A stretch of DNA of 35,320 nucleotides from a virus. Taxonomy: Duplodnaviria > Heunggongvirae > Uroviricota > Caudoviricetes. Within the stretch, counting starts at the first letter, position 1. Each line of letters starts with the position of its first letter. Of this stretch, positions 20,444 to 31,915 are shown in pieces. The position numbers and the translations under genes were made by a program. Below the pieces are notes generated by a model that saw nothing but the letters and a program-made list of their open reading frames with translations, had not been told where the DNA came from and made no database searches. The stretch lies in the IMG/VR virus record IMGVR_UViG_2606217174_000009. The stretch is one strand, 5' to 3'.

Positions 20444-22396
20444 ATGGCATTTAAACACTATGACGTGGTCAGGGCGGCGTCGCCGTCAGACCTTGCGGAG
20501 CGACTGACACAAAAACTGAAGGAGGGCTGGCAGCCGTTTGGCAGTCCTGTGGCTATCACTCCTTATACACTGATGCAGGCTATTGCCGCAGAGGGTGATG
20601 TGACCACGCCTGTGGTTGTGCCCGACACAGGGGCTGGTGGCTCTCCGGGAGTGGCTATCACTGAACCGGAGTATTACTACGTTATTCCCCTGGCCGGGCA
20701 GTCGAACGGTATGGCCTATGGTGAGGGGCTTCCTCTGCCGCAGACCTATGATCGCCCTGACTCCCGTATTAAGCAGCTGGCCCGTCGCAGCACTGTGACG
20801 CCGGGTGGTGATACCTGTGCATACAATGACGTTATTCCGGCAGACCACTGTCTGCATGATGTTCAGGACATGAGCGCACTTAACCATCCTCATGCAGACC
20901 TGAGTAAGGGCCAGTACGGGACTGTTGGTCAGGGGCTGCATATTGCCAAAAAACTGCTGCCTTATATCCCGCAGAATGCCGGGATACTTCTGGTGTCCTG
21001 TTGCCGTGGCAGTTCGGCATTTACCACCGGAGCCGACGGCTCATTCAGTGAGGTCAGCGGTGCTTCCGCTGATTCTTCACGCTGGGGAGCCGGTAAACCC
21101 CTGTATCAGGACCTGCTCAGTCGCACCAGAGCGGCGCTGGCGAAGAACCCGAAAAATAAACTTCTGGCTGTGGTATGGATGCAGGGAGAGGCAGACCTTG
21201 CATCGGGAAGTCAGCAGCATAATGGTTTATTCACAGCCATGGTTCAGCAGTTCAGAACCGACCTGTCTCCACTTGCAGCGCAGTGCGTGAGTGGAAATGC
21301 TGGCACGGTGCCGTGGATTTGTGGTGATACCACGTATTACTGGAAAAACACGTATGCCACGCAGTATGAAACAGTCTATGGCGCATATAAAAATCTGACC
21401 GCACAGAATATTTTCTTTGTACCGTTCCTGACGGATGAGAATGGACAGAACACGCCAACGAATGCTCCGGCGGAAGACCCGGATATTGTGGCTGTCGGGT
21501 ATTACGGTGCGGCATCCCGAACCCAGGGCAGTTTTGTTTCGACACAGCGTGACAGCCATTTCAGCTCATGGGCACGCAGGGGCGTCATTTCAGACCGTCT
21601 GGCCTCAGCTATTATGCTCCATGCAGGGCGCACGGCTGAACTGATGCGCGGGCAGACCGTGACACCACCGGATGAGAAGCCGTCACCTGATACACCATCA
21701 AAACCGTCCACACCACCGGCTGACACAACGACAATGAGCACGTTGCTTGCTTACCGGGCATCAGAGTCTGAAGGACAGCTGGCACCACAGGGCTGGACTG
21801 CCGGTGGTGGCAAGGCTCAAATCGTGGATGATGCCGGAGCCAGCGGGGGTAAGGCAATGAAACTGACCAAGGAAACAGGTAAATCCTCCTGGTACCTTGA
21901 GCATGATGCCGGTAATGGTGCAGACCTGCTGGGTAAAGGTGGTCTTGTCAGCTGCCGGTTTAAGGTTGACGGCACACTGACGGCTAATCAGTACGCACTG
22001 GCGCTGTACTGGCCGGTTTCTGCCCTGCCACAAGGGGTTACCCTGGAAGGTAATGCCGGTCATAACCTGCTGGCATCGTTTTATGTTCAGAGCGATGCCA
22101 CAGACCTTAACGTGATGTACCACAAGGGTAATCCAGGCCAGAACACGAAGCTGGGTTCATTCGGTGCATTTAATAACGAATGGCATACGCTGGCATTCCG
22201 TTTTGCCGGTAATAACAGCATTCAGGTGACGCCGGTGATTGATGGACAGGACGGGACACCGTTCATGCTGTCGCAGTCTCCGGTCGGCACGTTTACGGCA
22301 GACAAGTTGCGCGTGACCGATATCACTAACGGTGCAACATACCCGGTGCTGATTGACAGCATTGTGGTGGAAGTGAATAACGCGTCAGCAGGATAA
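20444..22396 (+). CDS. nanS: NanS-p-like sialate O-acetylesterase (SGNH/SASA domain)
   Basis: ATG at 20444 with GGAGG SD (ORF-track start 20414 is TTG); GQSN motif (IPLAGQSNGMAYGEG); position downstream of Q and tRNAs as in enterohaemorrhagic E. coli prophages. Confidence 0.8.
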   Translation: MAFKHYDVVRAASPSDLAERLTQKLKEGWQPFGSPVAITPYTLMQAIAAEGDVTTPVVVPDTGAGGSPGVAITEPEYYYVIPLAGQSNGMAYGEGLPLPQTYDRPDSRIKQLARRSTVTPGGDTCAYNDVIPADHCLHDVQDMSALNHPHADLSKGQYGTVGQGLHIAKKLLPYIPQNAGILLVSCCRGSSAFTTGADGSFSEVSGASADSSRWGAGKPLYQDLLSRTRAALAKNPKNKLLAVVWMQGEADLASGSQQHNGLFTAMVQQFRTDLSPLAAQCVSGNAGTVPWICGDTTYYWKNTYATQYETVYGAYKNLTAQNIFFVPFLTDENGQNTPTNAPAEDPDIVAVGYYGAASRTQGSFVSTQRDSHFSSWARRGVISDRLASAIMLHAGRTAELMRGQTVTPPDEKPSPDTPSKPSTPPADTTTMSTLLAYRASESEGQLAPQGWTAGGGKAQIVDDAGASGGKAMKLTKETGKSSWYLEHDAGNGADLLGKGGLVSCRFKVDGTLTANQYALALYWPVSALPQGVTLEGNAGHNLLASFYVQSDATDLNVMYHKGNPGQNTKLGSFGAFNNEWHTLAFRFAGNNSIQVTPVIDGQDGTPFMLSQSPVGTFTADKLRVTDITNGATYPVLIDSIVVEVNNASAG

Positions 22397-22530
22397 AAAA
22401 ATGCCGCCGGGAAAGGGAAAACAAGAAACCGGCGGCAAAGGTTGTCACATCCAAAGCAAAACATGCAGGACGCTTTTTTAACCAACAGGTATTAACGATG
22501 TCAACACCATATCAATAACTGGGAGGGATA

Positions 22531-22713
22531 ATGACATTTTTACAGCTTATTTTATTGTATTTCTGTACAGCAGTTTGTGTGCTGTATCTTCTTTCTGGTG
22601 GGTACAGAGTCGTGAGAGATTTCTGGTGCAGACAGATTGACAAAAGGGCCGCTGAGAAAATCAGCGCCAGTCAGTCAGCCGGAACAAAACCCGAAGAGCC
22701 TCTCATTCCGTAG
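22531..22713 (+). CDS. Small membrane protein (60 aa) conserved upstream of lambdoid lysis genes
   Basis: Hydrophobic N-terminus; GGGAGGG SD; paralogue at 29515..29697 on the other strand. Confidence 0.6.
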   Translation: MTFLQLILLYFCTAVCVLYLLSGGYRVVRDFWCRQIDKRAAEKISASQSAGTKPEEPLIP

Positions 22714-29697: not shown

Positions 29698-29860
29698 ATA
29701 ACCTTACCTTTGATATTGACTACAGAAACAGTTTTCAGCTAAAAAGTAACCGCGTACATAATGGTCTTCTTTGTCAGAGGTTGTAGCTTTCCTTAATGGG
29801 TTTGGAATATCCCGCCAGTCAACAAATGGCTCTTTGACCGGCGGGATTTTTTTATCCTGC

Positions 29861-31915
29861 TTACGCGTTATTCACTTCCACCACGATACTGTCAATCAGT
29901 ACCGGGTAAGTCGCATTTTTAGTGATATCGGTCACGCGCAACTTGTCTGCCGTAAACGTGCCGACCGGAGACTGCGACAGCATGAATGGTGTCCCGTCCT
30001 TACCATCAATGACCGGCGTCACCTCAATACTGTTGTTACCGGCAAAACGGAAGCCCAGCGTATGCCATTCGTTATTAAATGCGCCGAATGACCCCAGCTT
30101 CGTGTTCTGCGCCGTGTTTCCTTTGTGATACATCACGTTAAGGTCTGTGGCATCGCTCTGTACGTAGAACGATGCCAGCAGGTTATGACCGGCATTTCCT
30201 TCCAGGGTAACCCCTTGCGGCAGGGCAGAAACCGGCCAGTACAGCGCCAGTGCGTACTGATTAGCCGTAAGCGCGCCATCGAGTTTAAAACGACAACTGA
30301 CAAGACCACCTTTACCCAGCAGGTCCGCACCATTACCAGCATCATGCTCAAGGTACCAGGGGGCTCTTCCTGTTTCCTTGGTCAGTTTCATTGCCTTACC
30401 CCCGCTGGCTCCGGCATCATCCACGATTTGAGCCTTGCCACCTCCGGCAGCCCAACCCTGTGGTGTCAACCGTCCTTCAGACTCAGATGCCCGGTAAGCA
30501 AATAGCGTACTCATCGTCGTGGTGTCTGCGGGTGGCGTGGACGGTTTTGATGGTGTATCAGGTGACGGCTTCTCATCCGGTGGTGTCACGGTCTGCCCGC
30601 GCATCAGTTCAGCCGTGCGCCCTGCATGGAGCATAATAGCTGAGGCCAGACGGTCTGAAATGACGCCCCTGCGTGCCCATGAGCTGAAATGGCTGTCACG
30701 CTGTGTCGAAACAAAACTGCCCTGGGTTCGGGATGCTGCACCGTAATACCCGACAGCCACAATATCCGGGTCTTCCGCCGGAGCATTCGTTGGCGTGCTC
30801 TGTCCATTCTCATCCGTCAGGAACGGTACAAAGAAAATTTTCTGTGCTTCCTTGCCTTTGTAGCCACCGTATACTGCCTCATATTTATCGGTGCCAGCGT
30901 TTTTCCAGTAATACGTGGTATCACCGCAAATCCACGGCACCGTGGTGGCATTTCCACTCACGCACTGCGCAGCAAGCGGAGCCAGGTCAGTTCTGAACTG
31001 CTGAACCATGGCCGTGAATAAACTATTATGCTGCTGGCTTCCTGAGGCAAGGTCTGCCTCTCCCTGCATCCAGACCACAGCCAGAAGTTTGTTTTTCGGT
31101 TTTTTCGCCAGCGCGACTTTGGTGCGGCTTACCAGGTCCTGATACAGAGGTTTACCGGCCCCCCAGCGTGAAGAATCAGCGGAAGCACCGCTGGCCTCAC
31201 TGAATGAGCCGTCGGCTCCAGTGGTGAATGCTGACCCGCCACGACAACAGGGCACTAGAAGTATCCCCGCATTCTGTGGGATATAGGGAAGCAGTTTTTT
31301 GGCAATATGCAACCCCTGACCGACAGTCCCGTACTGGCCTTTTGCCAGATCAGCTTTCGGGTGGTTTATCCCGCTCATATCCTGAACATCATGCAGGCAG
31401 TGGTCTGCCGGAATGATGTCGTTGTATGTACACGACGTACCGTTGGGCGTTACCGTACTGCGGCGTGCCAGTTGCTTAATGCGTGGGTCCGGGCGGTCAA
31501 ACGAATCCGGTAACGGCAGCCCCTCGCCGTAGGCCATGCCATTTGACTGACCCGCGAGAATGACAACAAAGTAATATTCCGGCTCTGAACTGCTGCCATT
31601 CGTGCTACCGGAAGGCCCGGCGTTATCCGGTGCATTCCAGTCGGAGGGCGTGAGCGTTCCGGCCACGTCAGATGTGATTGGAATGATGCCAGTCACGCCT
31701 GAACTGGTGATTTCTGCACTGGGATTACCGGATACCGGCATTACCCATAATGGCTCTTTCGTGCTGAAGCGGATCACGCAGTCTGCGAAGGTGATCCCCC
31801 CTTTATTACCCGAAGGGCGGAAAGGGCTTTCAATAAATGCCACCGTGCCACCGGCAACCTTGACTGAAAACTCTCCGGGCATGGCGGAGAGCATTTTCCA
31901 CTTGGAGTCTGACAT
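29861..31915 (-). CDS. nanS: NanS-p-like sialate O-acetylesterase, second paralogue
   Basis: 684 aa; GQSN motif; C-terminal roughly two-thirds near-identical to the plus-strand copy; distinct N-terminal domain. Confidence 0.8.
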   Translation of the reverse strand: MSDSKWKMLSAMPGEFSVKVAGGTVAFIESPFRPSGNKGGITFADCVIRFSTKEPLWVMPVSGNPSAEITSSGVTGIIPITSDVAGTLTPSDWNAPDNAGPSGSTNGSSSEPEYYFVVILAGQSNGMAYGEGLPLPDSFDRPDPRIKQLARRSTVTPNGTSCTYNDIIPADHCLHDVQDMSGINHPKADLAKGQYGTVGQGLHIAKKLLPYIPQNAGILLVPCCRGGSAFTTGADGSFSEASGASADSSRWGAGKPLYQDLVSRTKVALAKKPKNKLLAVVWMQGEADLASGSQQHNSLFTAMVQQFRTDLAPLAAQCVSGNATTVPWICGDTTYYWKNAGTDKYEAVYGGYKGKEAQKIFFVPFLTDENGQSTPTNAPAEDPDIVAVGYYGAASRTQGSFVSTQRDSHFSSWARRGVISDRLASAIMLHAGRTAELMRGQTVTPPDEKPSPDTPSKPSTPPADTTTMSTLFAYRASESEGRLTPQGWAAGGGKAQIVDDAGASGGKAMKLTKETGRAPWYLEHDAGNGADLLGKGGLVSCRFKLDGALTANQYALALYWPVSALPQGVTLEGNAGHNLLASFYVQSDATDLNVMYHKGNTAQNTKLGSFGAFNNEWHTLGFRFAGNNSIEVTPVIDGKDGTPFMLSQSPVGTFTADKLRVTDITKNATYPVLIDSIVVEVNNA

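Follow-up and report, generated by a model that had tools for sequence, protein, structure and literature searches.

The 35,320 nt stretch of DNA analysed here (the window; IMG/VR record IMGVR_UViG_2606217174_000009) is identical to a contig of Escherichia coli 3-373-03_S1_C1 (colony C1) and carries two NanS-p-type esterase genes, copy A and copy B, in opposite orientations on either side of a lysis cassette. We found that it is made up of parts of two phages. On the evidence of gene content and sequence matches, positions 1-27487 correspond to a lambdoid left arm, running from the integrase gene of that prophage to codon 49 of its small terminase gene terS. From 27488 onwards, the window is very probably the right end of an Sp18/Mu-like transposable prophage that was inserted in that codon. 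An earlier, sequence-only reading of the window had proposed that two prophage late regions are juxtaposed here, which is right in outline but missed the mechanism, namely Mu-like transposition into terS. The features concerned, with domains called using Pfam on called genes and transfer RNAs (tRNAs) using ARAGORN throughout the window, are:

20444-22396, plus strand: esterase copy A, lambdoid NanS-p type (DUF1737, SASA and DUF6645), 650 amino acids
29861-31915, minus strand: esterase copy B, Mu-like type (orphan N-terminus of ~97 amino acids, SASA and DUF6645), 684 amino acids
20663-22410, plus strand: left arm of the inverted repeat (1,748 nt, 88.4% identity)
29838-31585, minus strand: right arm of the inverted repeat
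21512-21711, plus strand: 200 bp identical block, matching 30537-30736; crossover interval of both hybrid esterases of sibling colony C2, described below
22531-22713, plus strand: DUF1378 copy A (Pfam)
22751-23020, plus strand: DUF826 copy A (Pfam)
27341-27487, plus strand: terS stump, 49 codons of the gene for a 187-amino-acid small terminase; the open frame continues in Mu-like DNA to 27598
27488-27615, minus strand: Mu-like right terminus (TATAGCGCGGCG...), with three TTTGATAC repeats at 27505, 27527 and 27562
27616-28353, minus strand: mom (Pfam Mom)
28307-28507, minus strand: com (Pfam Zn_ribbon_Com)
29225-29479, minus strand: DUF826 copy B (Pfam)
29515-29697, minus strand: DUF1378 copy B (Pfam)

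The two halves of the window match different sets of genomes. The left half is up to 99.6% identical to lambdoid prophages of pig, human and other E. coli, and the matches to these relatives all end at 27493-27496. The right half is up to 99.7% identical to members of another set, with matches that all start at 27487/27488, and the breakpoint is exact at 27487/27488. The 7-10 base overlap of the megablast matches was considered as microhomology at the junction and rejected as chance gapped extension. At this point terS is cut after 49 of its 187 codons; in relatives an intact 187-codon terS is followed by terL, and the native continuation of terS in the lambdoid relative L001 departs from the window after 27487. 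On the other side of the breakpoint, the right terminus, starting TATAGCGCGGCG at 27488, abuts 12 unrelated flanks, including flgK and citF, at loci fetched from other genomes. When the terminus is read as TATAGCGCGGCGATTTTTTTGATACCG, it is constant at all 12 flanks and the base that precedes it differs among them, and hence the element starts exactly at 27488. No head or tail-shaft genes were found by Pfam among the called genes between the two esterase copies, much as the sequence-only reading had noted for the DNA between cos and the tail fibre module. This absence would fit its other proposal, a rearranged single prophage, and also a pair of neighbouring prophages, each inserted by site-specific integration, that lost structural genes by deletion. 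Either is highly improbable given that the boundary lies inside the terS frame, base-exact at the terminus of an element known at 12 unrelated sites, that the complete element encodes Mu-type transposition functions but lacks an integrase at that end, and that the window halves match different genome sets.

Gene order on the left is that of a lambdoid phage with an HK97-type packaging module (int, cI-like repressor, Q-type antiterminator, holin-lysozyme-Rz, HNH and terS). In full, the left arm includes the integrase, a RecE-like exonuclease, the cI-like repressor, replication genes, a YobI-type nucleoside triphosphatase (NTPase), hok, DUF968 and RusA, followed by the Q-like antiterminator, a methylase, three tRNAs, esterase A, DUF1378, DUF826, the lysis cassette, HNH and the terS stump. 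From 27488 the order is mom, com, a small conserved gene, DUF826, DUF1378, esterase B, tail-fibre assembly gene, tail fibre, gp48 and gp47, and the Pfam calls include the Mu-type right-end order of gp47, gp48, fibre and assembly protein through to com and mom. Across the Sp18/Mu-like family, esterase, DUF1378, DUF826, com and mom are found repeatedly in this order. A full relative of 38 kb, which splits flgK, is present in JE86-ST02, and a second copy in the same strain is in citF. This element encodes a Mu-type DDE transposase, an AAA ATPase in the MuB position, Gam, Mor and Mu-like head, tail and baseplate genes; in the insertion studied here, the transposase, ATPase, Gam and Mor genes fall outside the window. 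From its layout, the Mu-like structural genes should lie to the right of the window, and, as terL follows terS in the relatives, the lambdoid structural genes are expected beyond an insert of ~38 kb. Within the head-gene region of the JE86-ST02 Mu-like prophage, RefSeq annotates a 'tRNA-OTHER' (L054, 4660-4739).

Phage Mu has the termini 5'-TG...CA-3'. This pair is not found in the Sp18/Mu-like family: read from outside, the left end is TGTAACC in the JE86-ST02 relative (L054, 22740-22770), and the right end starts TA in 12/12 contexts. At its other end the JE86-ST02 element carries the TTTGATAC motif inverted and finishes ...GGTTACA. The three TTTGATAC repeats near the terS stump were among the 'cos-like repeats' of the sequence-only reading; we read them as putative transposase-binding repeats of the Mu-like right end. 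In this family the target duplication seems to measure 4 bp, against 5 bp in Mu, as the flgK flanks of the JE86-ST02 element share TGAT and a 4 bp duplication is annotated in LC727881.1. For the window copy, two points weigh against the insertion as described. The Mu-like left end and the 3' part of terS are outside the window, and its target duplication is unseen; and the terS/Mu-like junction was found in none of the complete genomes of the E. coli collection, so that two orientations of the DNA between the esterases are not comparable in closed genomes. The nested arrangement predicts that, ~38-40 kb to the right of 27488, the Mu-like left end (...GGTTACA) would be followed by (C)GTTTATAGCCCGTAAACAGG, the remainder of terS and then terL.

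Comparison of the window with itself revealed only two long repeats, both inverted, and no further ones. The first pairs 21401-22410 with 29838-30847 (1,010 nt, 93% identity) and the second 20663-21349 with 30899-31585 (687 nt, 85% identity). Combined, they form an ungapped inverted repeat of 1,748 nt (20663-22410 and 29838-31585) that is 88.4% identical, with 7,427 nt between its arms, and the extended inverted nucleotide identity that a dot-plot had been expected to reveal is therefore present. Identity is uneven, at ~63-77% at the 5' edge and 85-95% beyond, with ~93% nucleotide identity between the esterase copies limited to the 3' ~1 kb. The longest perfect block is 200 bp (21512-21711, identical to 30537-30736).

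At the protein level, A and B are 89% identical over 587 amino acids without a gap (residues 61-647 of A and 98-684 of B). The shared C-terminal part is thus real, though it makes up ~86-90% of each protein and not the two-thirds first estimated. SASA (PF03629) scored above the cut-off in both copies, both translations contain the GQSN block, LAGQSNGMAYGEG, and the C-terminal lectin-like DUF6645 (PF20350) was found in both with E values of about 1e-68. The N-termini are unrelated, as had been seen before: DUF1737 (PF08410) is present only in copy A, at residues 3-50, and the N-terminus of copy B belongs to no recognised family. The diverged pair of small genes reported after each esterase is DUF1378 then DUF826, for which the A and B versions share 50% and 39% amino acid identity, respectively. 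Between the esterase copies Pfam identified holin, DUF1327/YdfR, lysozyme, Rz/Rz1, a TonB_C protein, DUF3950, HNH, the 49-codon terS stump, mom and com, in agreement with the lysis cassette, HNH, truncated terminase and com/mom originally described there. Esterase A is in the lambdoid late region between the Q/tRNA genes and the holin, as in NanS-p; esterase B is outside the lambdoid late position, between the tail-fibre segment and com-mom of the Mu-like phage.

A sequence of events can be proposed from these observations. An Sp18/Mu-like phage with its own esterase-DUF1378-DUF826 cassette, located between the tail-fibre segment and com-mom, would have transposed into codon 49 of terS, entering with its right end toward the lysis genes. 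As the right end faces the lysis genes, the esterases form a 1.75 kb inverted repeat around a 7.4 kb segment. The insertion would put the packaging and structural genes of the lambdoid prophage out of reach of late transcription, and the host prophage would thus be defective. The repeat, chiefly the 200 bp block, may then have become a substrate for RecA-type homologous recombination. An exchange within the block would flip the 7.4 kb segment and yield two in-frame chimeric esterases of 647 and 687 amino acids with swapped N-terminal domains. After such a flip, the lysis cassette would follow the Mu-like tail genes, com-mom would come after the lambdoid late genes, and the Mu-like right end would be turned round with respect to the body of its prophage, which should block transposition.

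Candidates for such products are found in a sibling of C1. Colonies C1, C2 and C3 of 3-373-03_S1 are from one stool sample of one Tanzanian child, and were sequenced as 100 bp HiSeq reads that were assembled with MaSuRCA (PMC6222053). The open reading frame that extends from the terS stump into the Mu-like end was found in three assemblies only, those of C1, C2 and C3. The parental left junction is present in C1 and C3 and absent from C2. Hybrid esterase products and an inversion product were built in silico from the window for comparison. Contig 65 of C2 (12.7 kb) contains gp47, gp48, the fibre and assembly genes, a hybrid esterase, DUF1378-A, DUF826-A, the genes from holin to HNH, the terS stump, mom, com and DUF826-B, and differs from the in silico inversion product at 14 of 12,190 nt, none of them in the central 8.2 kb. 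Markers in the contig 65 hybrid change from B-type to A-type at a single point, which lies within the 200 bp block. The reciprocal hybrid (5' part from A and 3' part from B, 647 amino acids) had been predicted before the look-up and was found exactly, and once in the collection, as KDT81511.1 in colony C2. KDT81511.1 is on C2 contig 6 (165 kb), in the order lambdoid left arm, hybrid, DUF1378, DUF826-B, small gene, com, mom. Its switch is also within the 200 bp block, and both hybrids are open reading frames.

A B gene with the two amino acid changes of the C2 hybrid exists intact in C3, where two contigs carry a B allele differing by G226C and K272N, and exact look-up found no intact B gene in C2. 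The simplest reading of these sequences is that C3 has the parental state of the allele that would be recombinant in C2. In E. coli O157, a 174 bp prophage repeat bounds a 1.15 Mb inversion that was demonstrated by polymerase chain reaction (PMC7430833), and the 200 bp block is thus long enough. On balance, the sibling assemblies tip slightly towards a real exchange in C2. The earlier suggestion that the repeats could mediate inversion has thus gained specific support, in short-read assemblies, from reciprocal hybrids with a crossover in the 200 bp block, and is plausible. The sibling colonies differ in the Mu-like region despite near-identical lambdoid arms.

Other observations in the same assemblies weigh against an exchange between the two window copies. 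The 200 bp block is twice the read length, and linkage across it rests on read pairs. Three C1 contigs (including contigs 74 and 81) have the same sequence between gp47 and the esterase stop. Contig ends fall at 27505, 29395, 29530 and 13 bp past the esterase stop; breaks at both ends of the 1.9 kb stretch 27488-29395 imply that it is present in at least two copies with different neighbours, and more than one Mu-like copy seems to be present in the genome. Linkage in the window to the right of ~29396 crosses this 1.9 kb stretch, which is beyond short-read phasing, and that part of the window could combine two Mu-like copies; gene order is identical in every copy seen. In C2, the intergenic/DUF1378 allele downstream of the A/B hybrid is unlike that of the window and shares 99.7% identity with other Mu-like family members, and the B side differs from C1 at 8 tail-region sites, two of which are amino acid changes. 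A clean single-copy inversion was rejected as the full story because the C2 intergenic/DUF1378 allele, these 8 sites and the contig breaks at allele forks contradict it. Recombination may thus have involved another Mu-like copy, or the hybrids may have arisen by mis-joining.

That the C2 hybrids are assembly mis-joins over the 200 bp block, with all three colonies sharing one arrangement, is a serious competitor that we place a little below even chances. Reads of 100 bp and the MaSuRCA assembler were set against a 200 bp block in a repetitive region, where there are three identical C1 contigs, ends at allele forks and drifting contig ends, and one wrongly resolved graph crossing would create both reciprocal joins together. 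However, the flanks of the block differ by ~10%, and read pairs spanning 200 bp should phase them. Two of the three sibling assemblies were resolved the parental way, the C2 hybrid allele is consistent over 3.6 kb and intact in C3, and the lack of an intact B gene in the C2 look-up also argues against mis-joining.

It is unlikely, though less so than programmed inversion, that the exchange in C2 was real and involved the esterase of a second Mu-like prophage elsewhere, with a large chromosomal inversion or other rearrangement as the outcome and not a 7.4 kb flip. Such a partner would be in keeping with the contig breaks, which imply at least two copies of the 1.9 kb mom-to-DUF826 stretch, with the C2 downstream intergenic/DUF1378 allele, which departs from that of the window and matches other family members at 99.7%, and with the two Sp18/Mu-like copies of JE86-ST02. 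However, no second insertion site was seen for the 3-373-03_S1 strain, an intact B gene, as noted, was not detected in C2, and a simple flip would accommodate all C2 contigs, provided that the C2/C3 allele is the one in the nested copy. Programmed inversion by a Gin/Hin-type invertase, which might be considered as Mu-like relatives carry a resolvase/invertase gene beside the esterase, is scarcely credible, since the window copy lacks that gene and has no recombinase gene between or beside the arms, the crossover is in the longest stretch of homology and not at a short specific site, and the arms are two full-length protein-coding genes.

In the relatives, the resolvase/invertase gene is between the assembly gene and the esterase; it is missing from the window copy (31916-33687). 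As the assembly gene is opposite to the fibre gene, the invertase gene is absent and relatives have a resolvase/invertase, the G-type invertible segment of the window copy looks, from its gene arrangement, to be partly deleted and frozen.

The NanS-p family removes the 9-O-acetyl group of sialic acid and confers on E. coli a growth advantage on that substrate, according to papers cited in PMC10462455; the activity is known only for alleles other than A and B. The homologue gp84 of phi24B is reported, in a 2026 preprint, to be a capsid decoration protein that is attached via DUF1737 (bioRxiv 10.64898/2026.04.10.717836). For residues 1-100 of copy B, there was no match in Pfam or PHROGs. A word-index search with the copy B N-terminus returned only near-identical fragments, an exhaustive search added a Salmonella fragment (30% identity) and a further match that is probably false, and a search from the Salmonella N-terminal sequence recovered only itself. 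The N-terminal domain of this fragment, a partial esterase of Salmonella enterica (P0022), weakly matches phrog_4772, a 79-residue phage family of unknown function. A single-sequence AlphaFold model of the copy B N-terminus had a predicted local distance difference test score of 32 and was unusable. Our guess is that the copy B N-terminus docks the enzyme on Mu-type particles.

Returning to real exchange in C2, we tentatively envisage that in the gut population of one child the esterases truly recombined, and that the C2 chimeras swapped the DUF1737 and orphan N-termini. The lysis cassette would then lie behind the Mu-like tail genes, the Mu-like right end would be reversed and maybe immobilised, and the copy B N-terminus may serve in docking to a Mu-type virion.

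A Mu-like prophage nested in a lambdoid one is a known kind of arrangement, and the window is a further instance. Sp18-like Mu-like phages vary in location, with 6/10 copies inside other mobile elements, several of them Shiga toxin (Stx) phages (PMC10132054). Three independent parallels were found, among complete genomes and in a phage record:

LC727881.1 (L055), Stx2c phage: Mu-like insert ~6.8 kb beyond terS, probably among the head genes
NZ_CP044140.1 (L056), O157 strain AR-0430: Mu-like insert directly after the HNH gene of an Sp9-like prophage
NZ_CP168989.1 (L057), strain UTME-4: Mu-like insert in Rz of a Stx1a prophage

The depositors of LC727881.1 annotate an 'inserted Mu-like phage' with the 4 bp duplication mentioned above. 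In AR-0430 and UTME-4, the annotation includes two esterase cassettes that face each other across the lysis cassette. The mom gene faces the lysis genes in 3/3 parallels, an orientation that the search method favours. Degraded forms were seen in L022 (CM128582.1) and L024 (JBFOBM010000002.1), in which the Mu-like esterase-to-mom block has IS1 and lambdoid holin or Lom/tail-fibre genes as neighbours; the block of L024 directly follows Mu-like early genes. Among the papers of the library searched, none names nanS-p together with Mu-like phages.

With the prophages of the Sp18 (O157:H7 Sakai)/Mu-like family, the window copy shares the order gp46, gp47, gp48, fibre, assembly, esterase, DUF1378, DUF826, com, mom, right end, of which only the right-hand 7.8 kb is in the window, as well as the terminal sequence and variable insertion sites that include lambdoid prophages. 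It differs in lacking the invertase gene and in its location in terS, a site unseen in the complete genomes searched. Copy A resembles the NanS-p of Stx and lambdoid prophages (933W L0105; vb_24B_21/gp84 of phi24B) in having DUF1737, SASA and the C-terminal domain, and, as in Stx phages, is found between the Q/tRNA region and the holin and followed by DUF1378 and DUF826. In contrast, copy B retains the catalytic and C-terminal portions (89% identity) with an orphan N-terminus of ~97 residues in place of DUF1737, and is in a Mu-like phage next to com-mom, in a window that has no stx. The O157 prophage inversions (PMC7430833) resemble the exchange proposed here in that short identical blocks of two prophages recombine by homology and chimeric prophages result, whereas here the repeats are 7.4 kb apart in a nested pair and the case is known from short-read sibling assemblies only. 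The G segment of phage Mu, inverted by Gin, is also an invertible segment near the right end of a Mu-type genome. Unlike that segment, the one proposed here has no invertase gene or short crossover sites, and its repeat is a pair of 2 kb genes from two phages.

The remaining features of the window are:

1-1287, minus strand: integrase at the left end of the host prophage (Pfam Arm-DNA-bind_2 and Phage_integrase)
17458-18000, plus strand: Q-like late antiterminator (DUF1133/Phage_antitermQ; Pfam)
18590-19648, plus strand: N6/N4 DNA methyltransferase, lambdoid late region
19689-19938, plus strand: three prophage tRNA genes, anticodons CAT, TCG and TCT (ARAGORN; RefSeq relative)
23096-25647, plus strand: lambdoid lysis cassette with class II holin, DUF1327/YdfR, lysozyme, small open reading frames and Rz/Rz1
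26686-27051, plus strand: HNH endonuclease, HK97-type packaging module
28764-29057, plus strand: hypothetical gene of 86-97 amino acids, conserved in the Sp18/Mu-like family
32220-32741, plus strand: tail-fibre assembly protein, on the strand opposite to the fibre gene
32776-35320, minus strand: Mu-like tail fibre, gp48 (YmfQ) and gp47 (baseplate J)

Positions 9320-12953, in the early/nin region of the left arm, encode the YobI-type P-loop NTPase of 1,123 amino acids, with a 90-amino-acid open reading frame overlapping its end; the NTPase may be a defence-type accessory gene. A gene pair at 13923-15657, encoding a 216-amino-acid protein without a known family and then a 367-amino-acid HTH_3 and Peptidase_M78 (ImmA/IrrE-like) protein, is widespread among related prophages; a look-up of the protein encoded at 14554-15657 gave matches in unrelated genomes only. 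Between 19689 and 20443, the tRNA cluster is followed by ~500 bp without a called gene, directly upstream of esterase A. This gene-free segment is at the position of stx in Stx phages (compare the UTME-4 locus, NZ_CP168989.1), and no stx genes are present in the window.

One transposition event would explain this odd-looking locus, which then offers an example of resident prophages that remodel one another. The accessory cassette that they share provides homology through which modules for lysis, DNA modification and esterases can pass between the two phages, one lambdoid and one Mu-type. Should the difference between the sibling colonies be real, this shuffling of modules would occur on the time scale of within-host diversification, and the two hybrids would be natural domain-swap variants of an enzyme recently reported as a capsid decoration protein.

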